Of a stretch of 6,776 nucleotides of DNA, positions 1 through 6,776 are shown piece after piece. Below the pieces are notes generated by a model. The model had not been told where the DNA came from, searched no databases, and worked only from the letters and a program-made list of their open reading frames with translations. The stretch spans positions 1 through 6,776 of the forward strand of contig JBFESZ010000093.1 in the NCBI GenBank assembly GCA_041548245.1, read 5' to 3'. The position numbers and the translations under genes are program-made. Each line of letters begins with the position of its first letter. Within the stretch, counting starts at the first letter, position 1. This DNA comes from Sulfurimonadaceae bacterium. Its GTDB lineage: Bacteria > Campylobacterota > Campylobacteria > Campylobacterales > Sulfurimonadaceae.

Positions 1-216
1 AAAAAGACAGGGAACAGAGAAGATGCTAACTTCATCACTCGTATTACTGCATCTGTAAACGGTAAACTTGTATACGAAGTATCTACAAGTCAATTCCTTT
101 CTAAAAACCCTATCTTCAAGTTCCAGTTCAAAGGTGCTAACGCTGGCGATACTCTTGAGATGACGTGGGTTGACCGCAAAGGTAACACTGTTACTGACAA
201 AGCCCAAATCAAGTAA
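1..216 (+). CDS. soxZ: Thiosulfate oxidation carrier complex protein SoxZ, 3' part (5' end outside the window)
   Basis: Frame +1 is open from base 1 to TAA at 214-216 and reads KKTGNREDANFITRITASVNGKLVYEVSTSQFLSKNPIFKFQFKGANAGDTLEMTWVDRKGNTVTDKAQIK*. It has the SoxZ C-terminal signatures 'S-K-N-P-x-F-x-F-x-F-x-G' and 'G-D-x-L-x-x-x-W-x-D-x-K-G'. It is absent from the supplied ORF track because it has no start codon in the window. Confidence 0.92.
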   Translation, partial: KKTGNREDANFITRITASVNGKLVYEVSTSQFLSKNPIFKFQFKGANAGDTLEMTWVDRKGNTVTDKAQIK

Positions 217-232
217 TCCACTTGATCTTCCC

Positions 233-264
233 GAAGAAAGATGACATAAGTGCATCTTCTCTTC
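233..264 (+). terminator. Imperfect stem-loop downstream of soxZ (possible terminator or mRNA-stabilising hairpin)
   Basis: GAAGAAAGATG (233-243) can pair with CATCTTCTCTTC (253-264) with one bulge. There is no clear U-tract. A second perfect 7-bp inverted repeat, ATCAAGT-aatcc-ACTTGAT (208-226), spans the stop codon. Confidence 0.4.
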
Positions 265-370
265 AAAAACTCCATAACACACTTCAAAATAATTCAATAT
301 ATAATAAGTCTATACTCAAGTTATCTCAAAAAAAAGATTGTTTGATTGTAGACTCTGCTAAGGACAAGAA

Positions 371-817
371 ATGCACAAAAAAGAAGTAGGCCAAGTCGTA
401 AAAGTATTTATCTCGATTAAGGATGAAAATAACCAAACGAAGACAATCCTTAAAGATGAGATTTCATTGGATACACAAGGGGTTCAAGATGACAAATTCT
501 ATTCTAAAGATTCCATGCGCTCTATTCTGCTAAGCTCACTTGAGAGTTATGATATCGCAGAGAAAAATAATATAGCAATGCCATACGGTTCACTTGGGGA
601 AAACATACTCATGGATTATAATCCTTATCACTTGAACGTTGGGGACCAATTGCAAATCGGCGAAGTCATCCTGGAGATAACTCAAAACTGCACGCTCTGC
701 AAAGGGCTATCAAAAATAGATACTAAAGCTCCGAAGCTGCTAAAAGAGCATAGAGGTATCTTTGCCAAAGCTATTACCAATGGAACCATTCAATCAGGAG
801 AGAGCGTTTACATTTAA
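371..817 (+). CDS. Standalone MOSC domain-containing protein (YiiM-like), cytoplasmic
   Basis: 148 aa with MOSC motifs 'G-V-Q-D-D', 'R-S-I-L-L', 'G-S-L-G-E-N-I', 'L-x-V-G-D-x-L-x-I-G-E-V-I-L-E-I-T-Q-x-C-x-x-C' and 'R-G-I-F-A-K-A-I-x-x-G-x-I-x-x-G-E'. SD AAGGA at 361-365. No signal peptide. Confidence 0.88.
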   Translation: MHKKEVGQVVKVFISIKDENNQTKTILKDEISLDTQGVQDDKFYSKDSMRSILLSSLESYDIAEKNNIAMPYGSLGENILMDYNPYHLNVGDQLQIGEVILEITQNCTLCKGLSKIDTKAPKLLKEHRGIFAKAITNGTIQSGESVYI

Positions 818-844
818 TCATTAAGATTATCTAGATAAAAATAG

Positions 845-853
845 TGCTACAAT
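845..853 (+). promoter_or_regulatory. Putative extended -10 promoter element (TGcTACAAT) for the 926 gene
   Basis: TG-N-TACAAT at 845-853 with an AT-rich upstream region (TTAAGA at 821-826), which is the usual Campylobacterota primary-sigma promoter layout. It implies a start site near 860. Confidence 0.55.
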
Positions 854-925
854 TTCCACTTACATTTAAAAGCCCTGTAGTGTCAATGTAAGATTTACAC
901 TATAAAATTAACAAGAAGGAAACCT

Positions 926-1921
926 ATGAAAAAGATTTATACAATCTTAGTAAGTGCACTTGTCGCATTAACGTTTACAGCATGTGGTGGCAAGACTCCA
1001 GGTGTCGTCGGTGGTAATGATGGACAAGATATCCGAATCTTTACTGTTGCTAACCCGGACGGAAAAATCACAACTAAAACAATCGAAAAAGCTTTCGAAG
1101 AAGCTGGCTTTACTATTGATGGTAATAACAATATGAACGCTCCGTTCAAACCACGTTTTGGTTCAACTTATTATGAGACTTATCACCTTTTCACTGTGCA
1201 TAGCTCTAAACACGTATTAGCACTGGTTAAAGACTACCCAAGCATCGGTCTTCTTTCTCCACTAAGTATGTCTCTGTACTCTAATAGAGATGATGATATG
1301 TCAAACGGTAAAACAATGAGTATCTCATCATTGACGCTAAGAGGCATGTCTCGTATCACTGGTATTCCTATGGAGAACCCGGTTCTTATCTCATATGCAA
1401 AATTTTTAGAAGAGACTCTTGCAAAAGCACTTCCAGGTGGCCACTTTAAAGAGCTGAACTACGAAAAAGTGACTGATATGAGCCAAACGCTTGCGACATC
1501 ATTTGAAGTAGAGTTCGGTGGTGAAAGTGAAGATGAGATTCTTGGTGCGAAGGATGATTTCGAAGCTGAATTTGAAGGTGAAATGGAACCAATCGGTTTT
1601 CTTTTCCCAGGTTTTGTTGACTTCAAAAGTGAATTTGTAGAAGGTGGTTATGATGCATTTGACTATTATGACACTTACTCAGTTTGTAAGCTTGATGTCA
1701 TCTTTCCAATTCATCAGAAACACCCAGAAGTAGGTGCATTTGCTCCATGTACTTTCTATGTCTATAAAAAGAAAGATGAAACAACAACTAAAATGGGGTT
1801 CCCATCGGTTGATAACTGGATTAACTCAACAGATCTAGACATCACGGACACAGAAACTTTCGGTACATTGATCGAAGCACAAAAACTATTTGAAGATACT
1901 GTTAACGCAATTACACAGTAA
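926..1921 (+). CDS. Lipoprotein with two tandem DUF302-like domains
   Basis: Signal MKKIYTILVSALVALTFTA-C20 (lipobox FTAC) followed by a Gly-rich linker. Internal repeat: 'AGFTIDG...YPSIGLLSPLSMSLY' and 'IGFLFPG...YSVC254...HPEVGAFAPC275TFYVY'. The second copy matches the DUF302 pattern C-x~20-G-x-x-x-P-C-x-h-x-V-Y. SD AAGGA upstream. Confidence 0.8.
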   Translation: MKKIYTILVSALVALTFTACGGKTPGVVGGNDGQDIRIFTVANPDGKITTKTIEKAFEEAGFTIDGNNNMNAPFKPRFGSTYYETYHLFTVHSSKHVLALVKDYPSIGLLSPLSMSLYSNRDDDMSNGKTMSISSLTLRGMSRITGIPMENPVLISYAKFLEETLAKALPGGHFKELNYEKVTDMSQTLATSFEVEFGGESEDEILGAKDDFEAEFEGEMEPIGFLFPGFVDFKSEFVEGGYDAFDYYDTYSVCKLDVIFPIHQKHPEVGAFAPCTFYVYKKKDETTTKMGFPSVDNWINSTDLDITDTETFGTLIEAQKLFEDTVNAITQ

Positions 1922-1936
1922 GACCTTTCTAATAGA

Positions 1937-1962
1937 TATGCTACTTGGTAACAAGTAGCATA
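1937..1962 (+). terminator. Putative intrinsic terminator
   Basis: Perfect 11-bp stem TATGCTACTTG / CAAGTAGCATA with a GTAA loop, 15 nt after the 1921 stop. The U-tract is weak (CCCTTTCATT). Confidence 0.7.
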
Positions 1963-2013
1963 CCCTTTCATTATAAACTCCGTTTTTTATTTTCATACAT
2001 ATACAAAAGAAGC

Positions 2014-2019
2014 TATACT
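2014..2019 (+). promoter_or_regulatory. Possible -10 element (TATACT) for the 2077 gene
   Basis: gcTATACT follows an AT-rich tract and lies downstream of the 1937-1962 hairpin, about 57 nt before the ATG. Confidence 0.35.
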
Positions 2020-2076
2020 AATTGACTAAAATCATTTTATTTTCATTCTAGAAAATAAAATATCAAAAGGACCAAT

Positions 2077-3093
2077 ATGAAGTTTCTCTCAAAACTAATT
2101 ATCCCGGCACTGATGACTATCAGTCTTTTTGCAGCACCTCAAGATGGTGATGTCAAGTTTACTCCCTCTAACAACAAAGACTTAGCCGTTATCTATACTT
2201 TTGATGAGCCAAATGAGGATGAATTTTTTAAATTTGTGAAAGAAGACCTCTCAAAATTAGGTTTTTTCGTCAATGACCCTCACCACAATGTTCAGGCAGT
2301 TTATGAACAACGCTACGGTAAGACATGGCTGGAAAATATAGCATTCTCATCATTGGTTAATGACAAAGTTGTGCGCCCGCTTATCAATAAAGACCCGCGT
2401 ATTGGTGCGTTTACACCATTTAACCTCCTAACCTTTAGAAAAAAATCCGATAGTCTCACAACTATTGCACATATGACACCACAGGCTATGCTCGATATTC
2501 TTGAGATCAATGATCCTGAAATCACTGAACCGTTCATCAAAATGTTTGAACCACTTGATGCAGCCATAGCATCAAAGTTAGGTGGCAAGAAATCTTATAT
2601 CAAGCTTGAAGGGCGTGCAGAAGATACGATGCTTAACTTTGAGATCCCATTTGAAGAGCCTGAAGATATTGATGACTTTATGGATGAGTTTCAAGAGACT
2701 ATTGAGTCAGCTTTTGAAGCAAAAGAGTATATTATCGCCGGTTTTTATAACCTGAAAATGAGTCTTAACTCAGATGATGATGTCATGCCTGGCTATACTA
2801 CATTCTGGCTATTTGATCTGTGTCATATCGAATTCTCATACAATGTATTTGATGGTGAAAAAGCTGTACCCTTAGCAGGTGTATTTGCACCGTGTTCAAT
2901 GTATGTTTATGTTAAAGAGGGCGAGAATAAAATTGTCATAGGCTTACCGTCTCTTCGTGCATGGAGTGGTGCATTAGGCATTACAGAACCACAAAAATTG
3001 AAAATAATTGATCAACTTGATGCAGAGATCACAGAGACTATCCTTGAACTTGGCGGTAAAGTAACTCCAAATGGAAATCCATTAAAACAATAA
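2077..3093 (+). CDS. Periplasmic protein with two tandem DUF302-like domains
   Basis: Sec-type signal MKFLSKLIIPALMTISLFA. Domain 1 reads 'LGFFVNDPH...KDPRIGAFTPFNLLTF' and domain 2 reads 'YIIAGFYN...LC249H...AGVFAPC273SMYVYVKEGENKIVIGLP'. It is a clear paralogue of 926..1921 and 4525..5526. Confidence 0.8.
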   Translation: MKFLSKLIIPALMTISLFAAPQDGDVKFTPSNNKDLAVIYTFDEPNEDEFFKFVKEDLSKLGFFVNDPHHNVQAVYEQRYGKTWLENIAFSSLVNDKVVRPLINKDPRIGAFTPFNLLTFRKKSDSLTTIAHMTPQAMLDILEINDPEITEPFIKMFEPLDAAIASKLGGKKSYIKLEGRAEDTMLNFEIPFEEPEDIDDFMDEFQETIESAFEAKEYIIAGFYNLKMSLNSDDDVMPGYTTFWLFDLCHIEFSYNVFDGEKAVPLAGVFAPCSMYVYVKEGENKIVIGLPSLRAWSGALGITEPQKLKIIDQLDAEITETILELGGKVTPNGNPLKQ

Positions 3094-3100
3094 CCGCCTT

Positions 3101-3124
3101 TGTATAGAGTTTAAACTCTATACA
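3101..3124. terminator. Perfect 24-bp palindrome between convergent genes; probable bidirectional terminator
   Basis: TGTATAGAGTTTAAACTCTATACA equals its own reverse complement. It lies between the stops at 3093 (+) and 3156 (-). Confidence 0.7.
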
Positions 3125-3155
3125 CCTGCACTCAATGTCTACAATACGTATATTA

Positions 3156-3572
3156 CTATTCAGATTCTCTCAATTTGGCATAAAGCTTTGAATATTTCTC
3201 AACATCACTTCTGCTCGGTTTGACACGCACGGAGAGATAAGTCACTGTTCCATCAGCTGAAACTTTTCTAAGCGCTGTCGCATATACCCAATAGAACCCT
3301 CTATCTTTGCGTCTGTTCTTTACAAAACCTGTCCAGAACCCTTTTGATTGGATATCATCCCAAAGACCTTTAAAAGCAATCCTAGGCATATCTGGATGAC
3401 GCACAATATTATGCGGCTCGCCTATGAGTTCATCTAAATTGTAACCAGCTAATTCACAGAAAGTATCATTCGCATAAGTAATAATACCCTTTTCATCAGT
3501 TTCGCTAAGTATGTAAGAGCCCGCAGGGAAAAACCATTCATCAGTTGTAGAGTCTTTGTAGATATCACTCAT
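3156..3572 (-). CDS. Standalone PAS-domain protein, Aer/CetB-type (probable FAD-binding redox sensor)
   Basis: 'S-E-T-D-x-K-G-x-I-T-Y-A-N-D-T-F', 'P-H-N-I-V-R-H-P-D-M-P-x-x-x-F-x-x-L-W' and 'W-x-G-x-V-K-N-R-R-K-D-x-x-x-Y-W-V-x-A' match the N-terminal PAS domain of E. coli Aer. There is no transmembrane, HAMP or output domain. SD AGGA upstream on the minus strand. Confidence 0.9.
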   Translation of the reverse strand: MSDIYKDSTTDEWFFPAGSYILSETDEKGIITYANDTFCELAGYNLDELIGEPHNIVRHPDMPRIAFKGLWDDIQSKGFWTGFVKNRRKDRGFYWVYATALRKVSADGTVTYLSVRVKPSRSDVEKYSKLYAKLRESE

Positions 3573-3655
3573 AATAAATTCCTACCAATTAATAGCTATA
3601 TATAACTATATCCATAATAGAAGAAAAAAACAATTGAAAAGTAAAATTGAGATAT

Positions 3656-3695
3656 AAAAAGAAAGAAAAGTTCATCCGCCCGAAGGCAGATAAAC
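3656..3695 (-). terminator. Rho-independent terminator
   Basis: The minus strand reads GTTTATCTGCC-TTCG-GGCGGATGAAC (11-bp stem with two G-U pairs and a cUUCGg tetraloop), followed by TTTTCTTTCTTTTT, directly at the stop of 3695..4528. Confidence 0.85.
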
Positions 3696-4528
3696 TATTT
3701 AAAAGGCTTAGAAAGTTCTTTTTCAATTGCACCCGGGACAGTTGCAATCGTCATAAACTCTGTCATTGTAAGTTGAGGATAAGAAACAGCTAAATAGAAC
3801 TTGGCAGCCAATGAACGTGCTTCGTCATTCTCAATCAAGATCGTATACGGAAGGACACTTGCCTTATCGATGCCGATCTTCTCCACAAACTTTGCCGTAC
3901 GTTTGCTAAGGTCATATCCTAATAGATATTTTCCTTCAGCAATTTTCAATGTAAAAAGGTGAAGACTGCCCTTCTTATAAGACTCTGCTTTTTTAAGAAG
4001 CTCTGCTGTCTTTCCCTCTCCAATGAGATCACTGTCTTGATAGTAAGGCATACCTACCATAAAATGATAGTCAGCAAGTTCTTCATATTCCCATTTGTCA
4101 GAAGAAGGCTTTAGCCCTGTAAATACTTTCTCTAAATCAGTTTTTACACTGTTCAGAACTGCATAATCTGCATCATCCTGCATAAAAGCTCTGCCAAAGT
4201 ACTCCGGGTTTGAAACAGCAATCTGATTATTTGTCCCATCAACCAGAATACGTCCAATCGCAGCAAAACCACGCCCCTCTTTACTTGCCATCGTTTTCAA
4301 TGTAGCATTGGTAAAGATAACTGTCTCAAGCTTATTCTTTTTATTGACAAGATAAGACCCGATAACTTCAAATCCTGCATCATTCAATTTAGAACTAACC
4401 GTATCGGCTGTCATGGCAGGACCTATTAAATAAGCATGTACCTCTTTAGGCACTTCGCTAGCGTTAAGTGACTCTAAGCCACAAAGACTAGCGAAAAAGA
4501 AGACAAGTGCACTTAAAAGTTTTCTCAT
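3695..4528 (-). CDS. Exported hypothetical protein, possibly a distant DUF302-like fold without mature-chain cysteines
   Basis: 277 aa with signal-like N-terminus MRKLLSALVFFFASLCGLESLNA. 'KLNDAGFEVIG...VIFTN...RILV...IAVSNP' and 'ASVLPYTILI' echo DUF302 elements. Its start codon overlaps the upstream stop codon (ATGA, 4525-4528). Confidence 0.7.
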   Translation of the reverse strand: MRKLLSALVFFFASLCGLESLNASEVPKEVHAYLIGPAMTADTVSSKLNDAGFEVIGSYLVNKKNKLETVIFTNATLKTMASKEGRGFAAIGRILVDGTNNQIAVSNPEYFGRAFMQDDADYAVLNSVKTDLEKVFTGLKPSSDKWEYEELADYHFMVGMPYYQDSDLIGEGKTAELLKKAESYKKGSLHLFTLKIAEGKYLLGYDLSKRTAKFVEKIGIDKASVLPYTILIENDEARSLAAKFYLAVSYPQLTMTEFMTIATVPGAIEKELSKPFK

Positions 4529-5526
4529 TTTACTAATTTAGCGCCTATGCTTTCCATGATCTCAATGATCTCTTTGTCAAGCTTACGGATAGAAGCGATC
4601 TGTTTCTCATCTTTGATCCCGCCAGCTGCGATCCAGTTCTCTAGGTAAGGCATACCGATTTTAAGAACGTTTGAATCTTTTTCAACATACATATACATTG
4701 AACATGGAGCAAATGCACCTGCTTGCGCACTTCCGTGATTGAACACACCGTATGAGAAGAAAAAGTGACATAGTGAATAAACTGAATAAAAGTCATATTT
4801 GTCAAACTCTGCTTCTGCATCTCTGTAGTTTGCTGCAAAGTTTTTGTAACCCGCGATAATATATTTATTCTCTTCAAATGCTGCTTCAAACTCATCGCTC
4901 ATCCATGTATCAAGACCTGTAAAATCACCGTCAAGAATCATATCTTTTGTAACACCCTCTGGACGCTCAAATTCCATCTCGAATTCCATCAATGTTTTTG
5001 CCGGAAGTTTGTCAAAAGTAATGACCTCTTTCTTACCACCGATCTCTTGATCGACTAAAGCATCAAGTTCTTTGAATGATTCAACGAATGCACTGCGTAC
5101 TTCTTTGTCTTTAACACCAACGATGTCAAGCATAACTTCCGGATTGACATGACCAACACGTGTTACATCCTCATTTGCATATTTGTAAACATGTAAGTTA
5201 AATGGGGAAAAACCACCAAGACGAGGCTCTTTTAGAAGAAGTGGACGAAGTGCTTCATCATTTGCAATTGAGAAGAAACCCAAGTTGTCAAGTGTTCTGT
5301 TATAACCAGGTTCTGAGCTGTATTTTGTCGCATATGCGTCATTGATTCTCTCATGTGGATCAGAAAGAACAAATCCGATATCCTGGATTTTTTCATTGAT
5401 CATAGTGTTATAGGCTTCTTCTTTGTCGCCTTTTGCTGCGTTGAAATAAATACCGTCTTGTGCGATAACTGCACTACTTGCCAGTAGTAAACTAAGTGCT
5501 ACGTTTTTAATCGTTTTTGTAAACAT
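4525..5526 (-). CDS. Periplasmic protein with two tandem DUF302-like domains
   Basis: Sec-type signal MFTKTIKNVALSLLLASSAVIA. Domain 1 reads 'IGFVLSDPH...KEPRLGGFSPFNLHVY' and domain 2 reads 'YIIAGYKN...SLC253H...AGAFAPC275SMYMYVEKDSNVLKIGMP'. SD AAGGAAG upstream. Confidence 0.8.
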   Translation of the reverse strand: MFTKTIKNVALSLLLASSAVIAQDGIYFNAAKGDKEEAYNTMINEKIQDIGFVLSDPHERINDAYATKYSSEPGYNRTLDNLGFFSIANDEALRPLLLKEPRLGGFSPFNLHVYKYANEDVTRVGHVNPEVMLDIVGVKDKEVRSAFVESFKELDALVDQEIGGKKEVITFDKLPAKTLMEFEMEFERPEGVTKDMILDGDFTGLDTWMSDEFEAAFEENKYIIAGYKNFAANYRDAEAEFDKYDFYSVYSLCHFFFSYGVFNHGSAQAGAFAPCSMYMYVEKDSNVLKIGMPYLENWIAAGGIKDEKQIASIRKLDKEIIEIMESIGAKLVK

Positions 5527-5554
5527 TTCTCTTCCTTTTGGAAATTTGTCTTTT

Positions 5555-5563
5555 ATTCTAACA
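5555..5563 (-). promoter_or_regulatory. Putative extended -10 promoter element (TGtTAGAAT) for the 5526 operon
   Basis: The minus strand reads TGTTAGAAT, 28 nt upstream of the ATG at 5526. Confidence 0.55.
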
Positions 5564-5722
5564 TATCAAGGGTAAACAAATTTCATTAATATAAGCATCG
5601 GCTTCGAATATTTTACCATTGGTAACAAATGAAACACCCATACAATGCATCTGTCTGCTATCAATGTCATTGTGTATTAAAACGAAAGATTGTGAAAGGA
5701 TTGTGGAAATTTATTTATAATC

Positions 5723-5743
5723 TACTACCCCAAATGGGTAGTA
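5723..5743 (-). terminator. Stem-loop downstream of the FadL-like gene (putative terminator or stabiliser)
   Basis: TACTACCC-caaat-GGGTAGTA is a perfect 8-bp inverted repeat 14 nt after the stop at 5758. There is no strong U-tract on the minus strand. Confidence 0.55.
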
Positions 5744-5757
5744 AAGAAAAACTATTC

Positions 5758-6776
5758 TTAGAAAGTGTAGTTAAGATTAAAAGATGCAGCGTATTGGTTG
5801 TTAGTTACAGTAAGGTCACCTAAACCAGTTGCACCACTATTTACAGTAACATCACTGCTTCTACCATAAGTCAAAGCAAAATCAGCTGCAAAATTTTTCG
5901 TAAACTGGTATCCAGCACCAACTGTATAGTGACGTTCAGTAACAGCAGGGAACATTACATGGTTAAGTGTATTTAATGGTCCACCTAATCCTGACCCATC
6001 CGTAGCGCTAATAGGGTTTTCACCATAGTTAAAACCTGCACGTAATGCAAGGTCGTCCATACGGATCTCAGCACCTAAAGCGTACACATCCTGATTTCTC
6101 CAACCAAAATCTTGATAACCGCGAGCATTTTCCCAACGGATGTTTTTCCAGTCAGCTGTTAATGAAATATCCCCCTCTGTCCAATCAATACCAAGGCCAT
6201 ACTCTGCAGGCTGCTCAAGCTTGTCAGTAATTGCTCCTGCTGGGAATTGGAACGCAGCAGCAGCTGTTGCTATCTGGCCCTTGTACTCCATCTCAATTGA
6301 TGAATGATAAGTCGCACCTAGCGTAATACCGGTGTCCTCAAGCGTATAAGCTGCACCGACTTCAATACCCACACCAAAGCTTGAAGATGACCCATTTCCG
6401 ACTTGGTTATACCCTGCCAATAAATCTCCATCTGGCGCATTAAATGAAAGATCCAGTGAACCGTACATCATAACAGGAGCAATACCGACTGACCAATTGT
6501 TTTGTCCATATGCCATCGGAACAGAAAATTTAAGTAACAATAGATTCGATCGCATTGCATATAGGCCCATTTGTCCATTTGTTGCATAATTAGGGTCTAA
6601 AGGCTTATCTCTCCAGTCTGTTCCCATTCCAGCTGAACCAAACATACTCACGCCAACAGCATAACCGTTCCCTATATTTTCAGTTATAGCAACATAGGGA
6701 ATGACATTATGCTTTGCTTCACTTGTATTGTCTTGTGCTCCGCCTGTACCACTTGCACCGGCTGTTGTCTTTACAT
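5758..6776 (-). CDS. OmpP1/FadL/TodX-family outer-membrane beta-barrel channel, 5' end outside the window
   Basis: The frame stays open upstream of the GTG at 6651 to the window edge (VKTTAGASGTGGAQDNTSEAKHNVIPYVAITENIGNGYAVGV-SMFGSAGMGTDW...), so the ORF-track start is not real. It has amphipathic beta-strands, the family-type motifs 'T-L-G-A-T-Y-x-S', 'L-E-Q-P-A', 'I-x-W', 'W-x-N-Q-x-V-x-x-x-G', 'L-R-A-G-F-N-Y-x-x-N-P-I' and 'H-Y-T-x-G-x-G-Y', and a C-terminal Y-x-F (NYTF) beta-signal. Confidence 0.88.
   Translation of the reverse strand, partial: VKTTAGASGTGGAQDNTSEAKHNVIPYVAITENIGNGYAVGVSMFGSAGMGTDWRDKPLDPNYATNGQMGLYAMRSNLLLLKFSVPMAYGQNNWSVGIAPVMMYGSLDLSFNAPDGDLLAGYNQVGNGSSSSFGVGIEVGAAYTLEDTGITLGATYHSSIEMEYKGQIATAAAAFQFPAGAITDKLEQPAEYGLGIDWTEGDISLTADWKNIRWENARGYQDFGWRNQDVYALGAEIRMDDLALRAGFNYGENPISATDGSGLGGPLNTLNHVMFPAVTERHYTVGAGYQFTKNFAADFALTYGRSSDVTVNSGATGLGDLTVTNNQYAASFNLNYTF

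Follow-up and report, generated by a model that had tools for sequence, protein, structure and literature searches.

Between soxA and soxB, the sox clusters of Acidithiobacillia and Thiohalorhabdus contain single DUF302 genes, and so does that of Sulfitobacter between soxF and soxH (extracts of PMC5037610, PMC5248467, and PMC11034169), and extracts on Synechocystis and on Arthrobacter plasmids place them in sox or sulfide-handling clusters as well. The DUF302 protein of the Synechocystis sqr operon is described as resembling an Agrobacterium arsenic-linked gene (PMC5061849, in part), and a metal-resistance cluster of Acidihalobacter as flanked by DUF302 genes (PMC7760498, in part). The soxCDY2Z2 genes have been tied to the oxidation of S0, for which the route across the outer membrane is given as unknown in the relevant parts of PMC10045233 and PMC12936845; the former also links the presence of soxCD and absence of soxB to S0 consumption. 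A Chlorobaculum FadL-family protein has been proposed to carry hydrophobic sulfur chains (bioRxiv 10.1101/172254, in part). For S0 uptake by Sulfurovum indicum, OprD-like porins have been suggested; the OprD gene IMZ28_RS08595 of this species is co-regulated with sox1, its level on S0 being 3.0-fold below that on thiosulfate (parts of PMC10045233 and its supplement).

Gene content of the window

The window, 6,776 nucleotides long, is an entire contig of a Sulfurimonadaceae metagenome-assembled genome and represents the 3' end of a soxCDY2Z2 locus. All eight open reading frames named in a preliminary description were found where it had placed them, and its Pfam identifications held (PF03625 in P3, P4, and, marginally, P7; PF03349 in the FadL-type protein; PF03473 in the MOSC protein). 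The features are as follows.

1 to 216, + strand: soxZ2, C-terminal 71 codons (71 amino acids); PF08770, E = 4e-20
371 to 817, + strand: MOSC-domain protein, 148 amino acids; PF03473, E = 2e-10
926 to 1921, + strand: P3, lipoprotein with double DUF302, 331 amino acids; PF03625, E = 2e-8
1937 to 1962, + strand: terminator-like hairpin after P3; suggestive only
2077 to 3093, + strand: P4, soluble exported double-DUF302 protein, 338 amino acids; PF03625, E = 1e-6
3156 to 3572, - strand: PAS protein, stand-alone, Aer type, 138 amino acids; PF00989, E = 1e-12
3669 to 3696, - strand: terminator-like hairpin, 12 pairs plus T tract, directly 3' of the p277 stop; suggestive only
3695 to 4528, - strand: p277, exported protein, 277 amino acids; no Pfam family
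4525 to 5526, - strand: P7, soluble exported double-DUF302 protein, 333 amino acids; PF03625, 23.2 bits
5758 to 6774, - strand: FadL/Toluene_X (PF03349), divergent outer-membrane channel; E = 1e-20, 73.7 bits

The soxZ2 fragment matches TIGR04490 with 77.3 bits (cut-off, 76). An assembly gap holds its 5' part and most of soxY, and tblastn located SoxC, SoxD, and residues 1 to 67 of SoxY at one end of contig C52, where they run out at base 1. This genome thus has soxCD; neither soxB nor a soxXYZAB cluster was found in it. Terminator-like hairpins number 6 across the whole window, against 4.7 expected from shuffled sequences.

The window consists of two units built around periplasmic double-DUF302 proteins, not of the one module next to soxZ that had been proposed. 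The first closes the sox2 operon (soxZ2, MOSC, and P3, then P4), and the second is an autonomous convergent operon that encodes the FadL-type channel, P7, and p277. This arrangement recurs in related genomes and metagenome contigs and is therefore not due to chance.

Double-DUF302 proteins and their cysteine pair

P3, P4, and P7 are exported tandem-DUF302 paralogues with a conserved Cys pair, as the preliminary description had it, with 35% identity between P4 and P7 (E = 5e-67) and 24% between P3 and P4 (E = 8e-23). The predicted division into one lipid-anchored and two soluble proteins also stands: P3 carries the lipobox FTAC at residues 17 to 20, and P4 and P7 are soluble. The PF03625 assignment of P7 is marginal because its match, which covers residues 94 to 129 in the N-terminal half, scores 23.2 bits against a cut-off of 23. 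The AF2 model of P7 has a pLDDT of 91.2, and its C-terminal domain (residues 176 to 328) matches the Bacillus DUF302 structure 1q9u with a Z score of 11.0 and an rmsd of 1.9 over 128 of 128 aligned residues.

The Cys pair (C254/C275 in P3, C249/C273 in P4, and C253/C275 in P7) is conserved without exception across the 30 aligned family members, 28 of which have exactly two cysteines past the signal peptide. It sits in the C-terminal DUF302 domain with a spacing of 21 to 24 residues, one invariant pair per Cys-bearing paralogue. Because the pair aligns with both cysteines of 1q9u, it is an ancestral DUF302 feature and not special to the double-DUF302 family or a sulfur-specific adaptation; it may be a purely structural disulfide. 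A thioredoxin-like domain is fused to the C terminus of the double DUF302 in 2 of 150 family representatives.

Judged from names only, the family is limited to Campylobacterota, where it has expanded to four or more classes of orthologues. The P3 clade (support, 96/92) is nested within the sox1-linked class. The sox2-linked P4 clade (100/98) is sister to P7 plus the P7-p277 fusions (100/100), and the P7 clade itself has support of 100/100.

Linkage to sox genes across Campylobacterota

In a sample of 301 Campylobacterota genomes, with the family called by profile A3 at E ≤ 1e-15, double-DUF302 proteins were found in 36 genomes and SoxZ in 60. Occurrence was unequal, as the preliminary description would lead one to expect: the family is present in 33 of 60 SoxZ-positive genomes versus 3 of 241 SoxZ-negative ones (SoxZ thus accompanies it in 33 of 36 genomes, and three carry it without SoxZ), counts that overstate independence, as the genomes are related and not independent samples. 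Neither the family nor SoxZ was found in the two largest taxonomic families sampled (0 of 90 and 0 of 124 genomes). The family is absent from 27 of 60 SoxZ-bearing genomes, and Sox therefore works without double DUF302; in one taxonomic family, 14 of 15 genomes carry SoxZ but only 2 of 15 double DUF302.

Conserved linkage of the family to sox genes was borne out by gene order. The sample contains 65 double-DUF302 gene copies; 40 share a contig with soxZ at a distance of no more than 10 kb, 37 of these being downstream on the same strand, and double-DUF302 genes terminate both sox operons. In sox1, soxZ-soxA-soxB is followed by a same-strand double-DUF302 gene in 8 of 8 loci from 7 taxonomic families; these loci have a thioredoxin nearby in 6 of 8 cases, a DsrE-like gene in 4 of 8 by Pfam and in 2 more by sequence likeness, and an OprD or porin gene inside the operon in 5 of 8. 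The sox2 loci end with thioredoxin, MOSC, and double-DUF302 genes, the thioredoxin gene being missing from the window itself. P3 is the terminal gene of this operon, and its orthologues lie 0.6 to 1.4 kb downstream of soxZ2. Matches to P4 above 55% identity occurred, in the family sample, only in soxC-bearing genomes, and 13 of 17 were on the soxC contig. Two genera combine a frequent double-DUF302 family with rare or absent soxC (g6, 5/5 and 0/5 genomes; g17, 14/15 and 2/15).

The FadL-P7-p277 unit

The window FadL has no Cys; its N-terminal part is missing, the 5' end of the gene being cut by the contig end. A full-length orthologue (L005, 13644 to 14972) scores 91 bits against PF03349. Against the NCBIfam FadL equivalog, the window-type FadL reaches 28 bits (cut-off, 585). 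The genome holds a second, canonical FadL (197 bits) on another contig, where it adjoins an AMP-binding acyl-CoA-synthetase-type gene; the window FadL is not the housekeeping fatty-acid channel.

FadL proved to be a constant partner of one paralogue clade. Its gene immediately precedes P7 in 47 of 50 metagenome loci and 11 of 12 genome loci, and p277 immediately follows P7 in 64 of 69 and 12 of 12, respectively. Wider surroundings vary: among 33 P7 loci with at least 5 kb of downstream sequence, soxCDYZ-MOSC adjoins the unit in only 9, which argues against a single module, and a tandem-rhodanese gene plus a type II DMSO-reductase-family enzyme adjoin 15 others, making 24 loci with sox or rhodanese genes. 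No sulfur-related neighbor of the unit was found in the other 9 of the 33, nor in 4 of 7 annotated genome loci. In L025 the unit adjoins an rRNA operon, and in L033 an ArsC-family gene follows it.

P7 and p277 are closely tied. The p277 start overlaps the P7 stop codon by four bases (ATGA), and the two are fused in three genomes (L133 to L135) and in 18 of 150 double-DUF302 family representatives, some fusions having two or three double-DUF302 units ahead of p277. Since they are translationally coupled here and a single polypeptide in other lineages, P7 and p277 most likely act as one physical unit. In 3 of 3 loci, the gene for the fusion is preceded by one for an apolipoprotein-like helical protein (Pfam scores below threshold).

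The suggestion that p277 is a distant relative of the paralogues was upheld by fold and not by BLAST, which found no similarity; hhalign gave a probability of 62%. In the AF2 model (pLDDT, 84.6), residues 30 to 138 match 1q9u (Z, 10.1; rmsd, 2.4; 108 aligned) and residues 162 to 277 match 7tj1 (Z, 10.1; rmsd, 3.0; 108 aligned). With both halves matching DUF302 structures, p277 is, by its predicted fold, a double-DUF302 protein. Mature p277 has no Cys, as is the case in 27 of 29 members, and the window copy has no lipobox, which 20 of 29 relatives carry. The idea of a Cys-bearing, lipid-anchored paralogue at the barrel is not supported: P3 belongs to the sox operon, and the frequent lipoprotein of the FadL unit is the Cys-less p277. 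A p277 paralogue on contig C96 adjoins arsR, arsC, and arsB.

MOSC and PAS proteins

The MOSC and PAS proteins had been counted as members of an envelope module. Neither has a signal peptide (judged by eye, on the N termini of 5 of 5 MOSC orthologues); both therefore fall outside any envelope relay and appear to be cytoplasmic. MOSC also lies between soxZ2 and the double-DUF302 gene in L005, L009, L128, and L132, and its Cys110 is invariant in the 5 of 5 orthologues inspected. A role in the cytoplasm, as a molybdenum-cofactor or sulfur helper in the maturation of SoxC, is more likely. The Aer-type assignment of PAS was confirmed against the Aer PAS structure 8dik (E = 1.5e-28). PAS has no HAMP or signaling domain, no partner transducer was found within the window, the gene follows p277 in only 13 of 46 metagenome loci, and at least 17 more PAS matches occur in the genome. 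PAS probably senses redox or energy state in the manner of CetB and stands outside the relay.

Proposed function and alternatives

We postulate, tentatively and with somewhat less than even confidence, that the double-DUF302 proteins are thiol-based periplasmic sulfur handlers for Sox and that one clade joined a FadL channel whose hydrophobic cargo is plausibly S8. They would bind or carry zero-valent (sulfane) sulfur in the service of the SoxYZ pathway, in contact with SoxYZ, and the thioredoxin encoded beside their genes would keep them reduced. The P4/P7/p277 clade would have been recruited to a channel that moves hydrophobic cargo, most plausibly S8 or long polysulfanes, across the outer membrane in either direction; we infer both cargo and direction from gene context. 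Of the relay originally envisaged, the sox linkage, distribution, and FadL partnership survive, and the single module and the MOSC and PAS membership do not. We found no expression or biochemical evidence for S8 or polysulfide cargo, its capture, or its hand-over to SoxYZ. No gene annotated PF03625 or PF03473 is listed among those that S. indicum expresses differentially on S0 versus thiosulfate or on S0 versus nitrate, which counts against this reading insofar as the strain carries such genes (PMC10045233 supplement).

One alternative, which we consider unlikely, is that double-DUF302 proteins are thiol-disulfide maintenance factors that, with a SoxW/SoxS-type periplasmic thioredoxin, keep the SoxY Cys or another Sox thiol active, the FadL unit employing this fold for an unrelated task. 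The proximity of a thioredoxin gene to the double-DUF302 gene in each sox operon, the two thioredoxin fusions, and the single invariant Cys pair per protein all fit, but the proteins lack both a thioredoxin fold and a CxxC motif, their cysteines being 21 to 24 residues apart, and this reading accounts for neither the FadL partnership nor the Cys-less p277.

The FadL-P7-p277 unit might instead handle a hydrophobic organic molecule (fatty acid, quinone, octanoate/lipoate, or hydrocarbon), its sox adjacency stemming from a variable island beside an rRNA operon. All characterized FadL-family channels carry organic hydrophobics, to our knowledge; p277 has no Cys; and the 9 loci without a sulfur neighbor, the rRNA operon of L025, and the subthreshold apolipoprotein-like protein point the same way. 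Yet the genome already has a canonical FadL beside an acyl-CoA-synthetase-type gene, P7 is sister to the sox-linked P4 and keeps the Cys pair, 24 of 33 loci adjoin sox or rhodanese genes, and none of the 214 genomes sampled from the two Sox-less taxonomic families yielded the double-DUF302 family. Organic cargo seems improbable.

FadL channels are passive, so that direction is not fixed by the protein, and Sox without SoxCD is expected to leave sulfane sulfur. The same parts could thus remove periplasmic S0 or S8, formed when sulfide is oxidized or the Sox cycle is incomplete, and deposit it outside the cell, and genera lacking soxCD (g6 and g17) commonly have the FadL unit. We regard outward flow as quite unlikely here, as the genome is soxCD positive with soxB not found, a pattern tied to S0 consumption (PMC10045233, in part). 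A role for the Cys pair in binding soft metals or metalloids (As, Hg, or Cu), with the family acting in envelope detoxification or trafficking, is very improbable: DUF302 genes do occur in arsenic- and metal-linked settings (extracts of PMC5061849 and PMC7760498), beside the ars genes of C96, and before the ArsC-family gene of L033, but the dominant conserved neighbors are sox genes and the ars-adjacent p277 paralogue belongs to a Cys-less type.

The double-DUF302 family with its FadL channel offers a conserved, testable candidate for handling water-insoluble sulfur.

Comparison with known systems

As a Pfam Toluene_X member, the window gene belongs with FadL, TodX, and TbuX, and its orthologues have an N-terminal, Gly-rich segment that is presumably similar to the FadL hatch. 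It differs in falling far below the equivalog cut-off and in being paired with dedicated periplasmic proteins; we know of no such partners of FadL. The role proposed here, in which Cys-bound sulfane sulfur would be passed on in the periplasm beside an oxidoreductase, is that of SoxYZ, DsrE-like proteins, and the Wolinella polysulfide-sulfur transferase Sud. The four double-DUF302 proteins of the window, for which we infer this role, are related to these in neither sequence nor fold, and a Pfam domain search did not find the SoxYZ, DsrE, or Sud families in them. The window PAS closely resembles the PAS domain of Escherichia coli Aer without its HAMP and signaling domains and stands alone, as does the Campylobacter PAS protein CetB.

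Chlorobaculum tepidum CT2230 embodies the same idea, a FadL-type channel within a sulfur regulon, and is likened to the window FadL by proposed role. The argument for it is built on a promoter motif in common and on repression by sulfide, and the relevant parts of that account mention no DUF302 partner. The OprD-like porins of S. indicum are likewise candidate outer-membrane sulfur routes, from the same phylum, but belong to another barrel family, and general porins suit hydrophilic solutes; the relevant parts of that account do not discuss the FadL unit (PMC10045233).

Closest to the window proteins are the single-domain DUF302 proteins of other sox clusters, which share the Pfam family, the fold, the two Cys positions, the sox setting, and an unassigned function. 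The window family, in contrast, has two DUF302 domains per chain with the Cys pair only in the C-terminal one, a FadL-tied class, a Cys-less partner, and genes that end their operons.

Gene content and genomic context

The window is the complete contig C93 of a 2.16-Mb assembly of 165 contigs (completeness, 95.95%; contamination, 5.67%). A six-frame ORF listing, with families assigned by profile matches, confirmed the eight genes recognized in the preliminary description.

Genes in the window
1-216, + strand: soxZ, last 71 codons (PF08770; TIGR04490, 77.3 bits versus 76)
371-817, + strand: MOSC protein (PF03473)
926-1921, + strand: P3, 331 aa (PF03625)
2077-3093, + strand: P4, 338 aa (PF03625)
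3156-3572, - strand: PAS-only protein, 138 aa (PF00989)
3695-4528, - strand: p277, 277 aa (no family)
4525-5526, - strand: P7, 333 aa (PF03625, marginal)
5758-6774, - strand: Toluene_X/FadL-family gene (PF03349), N terminus cut off by the contig end

The 71-aa SoxZ fragment exceeded the SoxZ_true cutoff (TIGR04490, 76 bits), and the start of the neighboring soxY was found on another contig. Using proteins from a syntenic relative, tblastn placed soxC and soxD (C52:220-2665) and SoxY residues 1 to 67 at the extreme end of contig C52. C52 therefore most likely precedes C93, the unassembled junction holding what is left of soxY together with the beginning of soxZ, and this order makes the window the tail of a soxCDY2Z2 (sox2) locus. 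No SoxB, second SoxZ, or SoxY domain was found elsewhere in the assembly (96% complete), which suggests that the organism may encode soxCDYZ only, without soxXYZAB (sox1). Passages of an earlier paper tie that gene complement to S0 oxidation in one oil-field Sulfurimonas (PMC10045233). No Rfam RNA families were found in the window, and a promoter scan gave background levels (24 sites versus 20.2 expected).

A 3,032-bp contig of the same assembly, C146, carries a second collinear P4-PAS-p277-P7 copy matching window positions 2143 to 5178, with 68.5% nucleotide identity and 67 to 74% protein identity. This copy represents either a genuine paralogous locus or another strain binned with the genome (contamination, 5.67%). 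Two P4-type fragments were likewise present in two other MAGs.

Exported DUF302 proteins and their cysteine pair

The Pfam families named in the preliminary description (PF03625, PF03349, and PF03473) were all recovered above their gathering scores or cutoff. For DUF302 (PF03625; gathering score, 23 bits), P3 scored 34.6 bits, P4 28.7, and P7 a marginal 23.2. P4 is 35% identical to P7 (E = 5e-67) and 24% identical to P3 (E = 8e-23). The PF03625 match falls in the N-terminal half of both P4 and P7, and the N-terminal domain of P7 is provisionally assigned to DUF302 by this match alone (residues 94 to 129). Folds were compared with the solved DUF302 structures 1q9u, 1j3m, and 7tj1. In the AF2 model of P7 (pLDDT, 91.2; pTM, 0.89; built from a 30-sequence alignment), the C-terminal domain superimposed on 1q9u over 128 of 128 residues (Z, 11.0; rmsd, 1.9).

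The fourth exported protein, p277, had no PF03625 match, no detectable sequence similarity to P3, P4, or P7, and no match in a profile search of the PDB. An hhalign comparison of p277 with the family (62% probability) was set aside in favor of the fold match, as the aligned stretch included signal peptides. In its AF2 model (pLDDT, 84.6), residues 30 to 138 matched 1q9u (Z, 10.1; rmsd, 2.4; 108 aligned) and residues 162 to 277 matched 7tj1_C (Z, 10.1; rmsd, 3.0; 108 aligned). Judged by this predicted fold, p277 is a fourth, highly divergent double-DUF302 protein; the distant similarity first ascribed to it thus holds at the level of fold but not of sequence. Complex prediction for P7 (residues 23 to 333) with p277 (residues 27 to 277) scored 0.29 against a mark of 0.32 and was counted neither for nor against their association. 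With signal peptides assigned by eye, P3 has a lipobox, as do four of six P3 orthologues examined; p277 of the window has none, and 20 of 29 of its relatives do.

An alignment of 30 family members from three paralogue classes contained twelve invariant columns, two of which are cysteines (C253 and C275 in P7 numbering). In 28 of the 30 members, exactly these two cysteines follow the signal peptide, and both are gone from the N-terminal DUF302 domains. Cysteine is absent altogether from p277 in 27 of 29 members. The Bacillus DUF302 structure 1q9u has two cysteines, and a PDB profile search aligned both family cysteines with them; the pair is therefore ancestral to the DUF302 domain rather than invented by the double-DUF302 family. 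No SoxY, SoxZ, DsrE, TusA, or rhodanese profile matched P3, P4, P7, or p277 at E ≤ 0.1, and a sulfur carrier role for these proteins would be analogous, not homologous, to that of the known carriers.

Double-DUF302 genes follow both sox clusters

Within the window's taxonomic family, 94 of 121 genomes had a P4 match and 72 had SoxC. The double-DUF302 family occurs without SoxC in several genera (for example, 5/5 versus 0/5 genomes and 14/15 versus 2/15). Matches with >55% identity to P4 were confined to genomes with SoxC, and 13 of 17 shared a contig with soxC. Across a 301-genome sample of the phylum, the double-DUF302 profile was found in 36 genomes and SoxZ in 60; 33 of the 36 also had SoxZ, counts that come from related rather than independent genomes. 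Three genomes had the family without SoxZ, 27 of the 60 with SoxZ had no double-DUF302 protein, and neither was found in the 214 genomes of the sample's two largest taxonomic families. On the same contig, 40 of 65 double-DUF302 copies lay within 10 kb of soxZ, 37 of these 40 downstream on the same strand. These proportions (40/65 copies and 33/36 genomes) support a linkage with sox that is conserved in Campylobacterota, as the preliminary description had anticipated.

Copies near sox genes fell into two distance classes, 0.25 to 1.4 kb from soxZ2 and about 5 to 7.5 kb from soxZ1, because double-DUF302 genes follow in both the sox2 and the sox1 loci. We annotated eleven sox-linked loci with Pfam. 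All eight sox1 loci, drawn from seven taxonomic families, share one layout: soxZ-soxA-soxB, then other genes, and after these a double-DUF302 gene. The intervening genes encode a porin (5/8), a SoxH-like metallo-beta-lactamase (7/8), a thioredoxin (6/8), and a secreted DsrE-like protein (4/8 by Pfam and 2 more by likeness). At the end of the sox2 loci lie thioredoxin, MOSC, and double-DUF302 genes.

A maximum likelihood tree resolved two deep clades, one uniting the sox1-linked class with P3 and the other uniting P4 with P7 plus the fusions described below; the P3, P4, and P7 clades are each well supported. Both clades thus contain sox-linked members, and the FadL-linked clade has a sox-linked clade as its sister group.

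Other features of these loci were also observed. The porin-type (OprD/porin) outer membrane gene lies inside the operon after soxB in the sox1 loci L117 and L121 to L124. A single-contig genome (L131, G389:C1:1762000-1781900) carries three sox1-tail copies with double DUF302, 3,883 bp apart and exact over the 300-nt reference copy compared. In a third double-DUF302 context (L130, G292:C2:100000-108000), the neighbors are genes for cytochrome c, a flavocytochrome c-type sulfide dehydrogenase flavoprotein, soxY, and soxZ, with two unassigned genes between soxZ and the DUF302 gene.

The differential-expression lists published for Sulfurovum indicum (PMC10045233 supplement) contain no PF03625 or PF03473 genes, and IMZ28_RS08575, a candidate sox1-linked double-DUF302 gene by synteny with the sox1 locus L125, is in none of its expression lists. 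The OprD/porin-type gene IMZ28_RS08595 followed its sox1 neighbors, with a level on S0 that was 3.0-fold below that on thiosulfate, and two FadL-family genes changed under S0 reduction versus nitrate (PMC10045233). One of these two, RS01080 (up 2.5-fold), was rejected as a member of a FadL-P7-p277 unit because it adjoins a secretory-lipase-like gene.

The FadL-P7-p277 unit

The syntenic relative L005 carries, in sequence, soxC, soxD, soxY, soxZ, thioredoxin, MOSC, P3, and P4, with PAS, p277, P7, and FadL convergent to the sox2 genes. Across twelve genomes with P7-type genes, p277 was adjacent in 12, FadL in 11, and PAS in 2. A metagenome scan with the double-DUF302 profile, whose yield was limited to close relatives of the P7 type (≥51% identity), gave 80 contigs, with FadL directly upstream of P7 in 47 of the 50 that had room, p277 directly downstream in 64 of 69, and PAS thereafter in 13 of 46. 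In the window, the P7 stop and p277 start overlap (ATGA), and a terminator-like hairpin after p277 is suggestive only. FadL-P7-p277 behaves as an independent operon. The single module originally envisaged is therefore replaced, on these neighbor counts, by two units, the FadL unit being separate from the sox2 tail.

Downstream contexts differ. Among 33 P7 contigs with at least 5 kb of downstream sequence, 9 adjoin soxCDYZ-MOSC, as in the window. On 15 others, the neighbors are an ApbC-like gene, a pair of small genes, and, in divergent orientation, a tandem-rhodanese gene together with a type II DMSO-reductase-family enzyme; the last 9 have neither set. The FadL unit also adjoins the ApbC-like Fe-S carrier gene in L025:1-8634, L031, and L032, from genera without soxCD, together with a 124-aa gene, an LRV-repeat gene, and the divergent tandem-rhodanese and DMSO-reductase-family operon. 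In this enzyme, the alpha subunit scored below and the beta subunit above the family cutoff, and the gamma subunit is a heme b plus c-type heme domain. In one genome, a complete rRNA operon (5S, 23S, two tRNAs, 16S; L025:12494-17680) lies directly upstream of FadL and may account for the many contigs that end near FadL; an ORF-poor stretch past P4 in L009 looks similar to this region.

Two further genes of the window's genome (G000) resemble members of these families. At G000:C96:1957-2832 (- strand) lies a solitary third p277-like gene, with 38% identity, beside a glyoxalase-family gene, arsR, a low-molecular-weight phosphatase-type arsC, and arsB. A single-domain DUF302 gene (G000:C120:3931-4518; 195-aa ORF) lies beside a pyridine-nucleotide-disulfide-oxidoreductase fragment.

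That P7 and p277 act together is suggested mainly by natural fusions. In three genomes of other genera, both form one ORF of 695 to 708 aa (L133:6132-8258, L134:3876-5981, and L135:2800-4887), in which residues 465 to 708 are 42% identical to p277 (E = 1e-61); with proteins P0241 to P0245 included, such fusions span 695 to 721 aa. An exhaustive profile search returned 230 representatives with E ≤ 0.001, the few named ones being Sulfurovum and Sulfurospirillum, and of the best 150, which were inspected for fusions, 18 have a p277 module attached after one to three double-DUF302 units. The longer chains, with two or three units before p277, reach 918 to 1345 aa, and one is named uncultured Sulfurovum. 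In the ESM Atlas, the DUF302 clusters came from Campylobacterota only. A different fusion, double DUF302 with a C-terminal thioredoxin-like domain (Thioredoxin_7/DsbH type), occurs in two representatives, P0308 (407 aa) and P0310 (426 aa). A helical protein with subthreshold apolipoprotein-like Pfam matches is encoded directly upstream of the P7-p277 fusion gene in 3/3 genome loci, and HlyD/RND genes lie near these fusion genes.

Against the FadL/Toluene_X profile (PF03349; gathering score, 29.7 bits), the truncated gene of the window scored 73.7 bits and its full-length L005 orthologue 91. The latter (L005:13644-14972) scored 28.1 bits against the E. coli-type FadL equivalog (NCBIfam PRK10716), below the cutoff of 585. 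The canonical FadL of the window's genome (C32:16395-17591; 197 bits) is followed by an AMP-binding acyl-CoA-synthetase-type gene, and the two are presumably the cell's fatty acid uptake pair.

MOSC and PAS proteins

SoxC is a molybdoenzyme. The MOSC protein (PF03473, 40.9 bits; cutoff, 22.7) has an invariant Cys110 and no signal peptide in the five orthologues inspected (5/5). An apparently cytoplasmic protein of this kind has no place among the steps of a periplasmic relay, and its proposed membership of the envelope relay was rejected. A simpler reading is that it would aid cofactor or sulfur supply to SoxC before export.

The PAS protein is closest to the PAS domain of Aer (8dik; E = 1.5e-28). 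An Aer receptor combines a FAD-type PAS domain with HAMP and MCP signaling domains; here 138 aa of PAS stand alone, and by analogy the protein probably works like the sensor domain of Aer/CetB without being an Aer receptor. It lacks an output domain, has many paralogues in the genome, and is adjacent to the FadL unit in only about a quarter of loci.

Discussion

The sulfur import and relay scheme of the preliminary description survives in part: the conserved sox linkage and the FadL partner speak for it, and the single module and the role of MOSC did not hold. We tentatively propose that double-DUF302 proteins handle sulfane sulfur for SoxYZ and that the P4/P7/p277 clade works with a FadL channel for hydrophobic cargo, a reading we regard as possible. 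The cysteine-bearing proteins would act in the periplasm, binding or carrying sulfane sulfur on their thiols for the benefit of SoxYZ, and would probably be recycled by the neighboring thioredoxin. The P4/P7/p277 clade would partner a dedicated FadL-type channel that passes its cargo, most plausibly S8 or long polysulfanes, across the outer membrane in either direction, for uptake or deposition.

Other explanations bear on the same evidence. The double-DUF302 proteins, whose genes lie near thioredoxin genes in sox2 and in most sox1 loci, might serve thiol-redox maintenance. The FadL unit might carry an unrelated organic hydrophobic cargo, or it might transport S0 outward. Soft-metal binding by the cysteine pair is a further, unlikely candidate function. 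Fatty acids as cargo were rejected, since the genome's separate canonical FadL beside an acyl-CoA-synthetase-type gene argues that the window's channel is not for them.

A bolder extension, which we consider doubtful, is that FadL-P7-p277 and the sox-linked paralogues together supply the route, so far missing, by which elemental sulfur crosses the envelope of neutrophilic sulfur oxidizers. By this route, S8 would pass the outer membrane through the dedicated FadL-type channel and be taken over by a multidomain DUF302 carrier, in some lineages one polypeptide with up to eight DUF302 domains. The cysteine pair would open the S8 ring to form a protein-bound polysulfane, which would be handed to SoxY2Z2 and oxidized by SoxCD. 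If this were true, DUF302 would be a general thiol-based carrier fold for sulfane sulfur, a role that would account for its repeated appearance in sox, sqr, and persulfide detoxification clusters across phyla.

Campylobacterota are the dominant sulfur oxidizers at vents, seeps, and sulfidic aquifers. The locus supplies candidate genes, namely, a dedicated FadL-type channel with constant, sometimes mutually fused periplasmic partners, and sister proteins whose genes come last in both sox operons in several Campylobacterota families. They bear on an open question, how neutrophilic lithotrophs bring water-insoluble S8 across the outer membrane onto the Sox carrier, raised in passages of PMC10045233. 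The relevant passages of that paper and of PMC12936845 tie soxCDY2Z2 to S0 oxidation, describe the outer membrane route of S0 as unknown while suggesting only OprD-like porins, and make no mention of DUF302, MOSC, or FadL. For the widespread orphan domain DUF302, the locus suggests a chemistry that can be tested, namely, a dithiol site holding sulfane sulfur, which fits its scattered occurrence in sulfur gene clusters of other phyla. Should the sulfur role prove wrong, the pairing of a FadL channel with obligatory periplasmic binding partners would still be novel among transporters of this family.

A full-text literature search, in which most papers mentioning DUF302 were judged by title, found none on Campylobacterota double-DUF302 proteins or a FadL-DUF302 unit. 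Comparable cases come from other groups. Single DUF302 genes of unknown function are reported in sox clusters of Acidithiobacillia and Thiohalorhabdus (PMC5037610, PMC5248467) and of Sulfitobacter (PMC11034169), as are others, likewise single and without assigned function, in a Synechocystis sqr operon (PMC5061849) and in sulfur modules of Arthrobacter plasmids (PMC6305408). A FadL-family protein was proposed for hydrophobic sulfur in Chlorobaculum in a preprint (bioRxiv 10.1101/172254). The finding in the window is a variant on these known kinds, Sox accessory genes and FadL-type channels.
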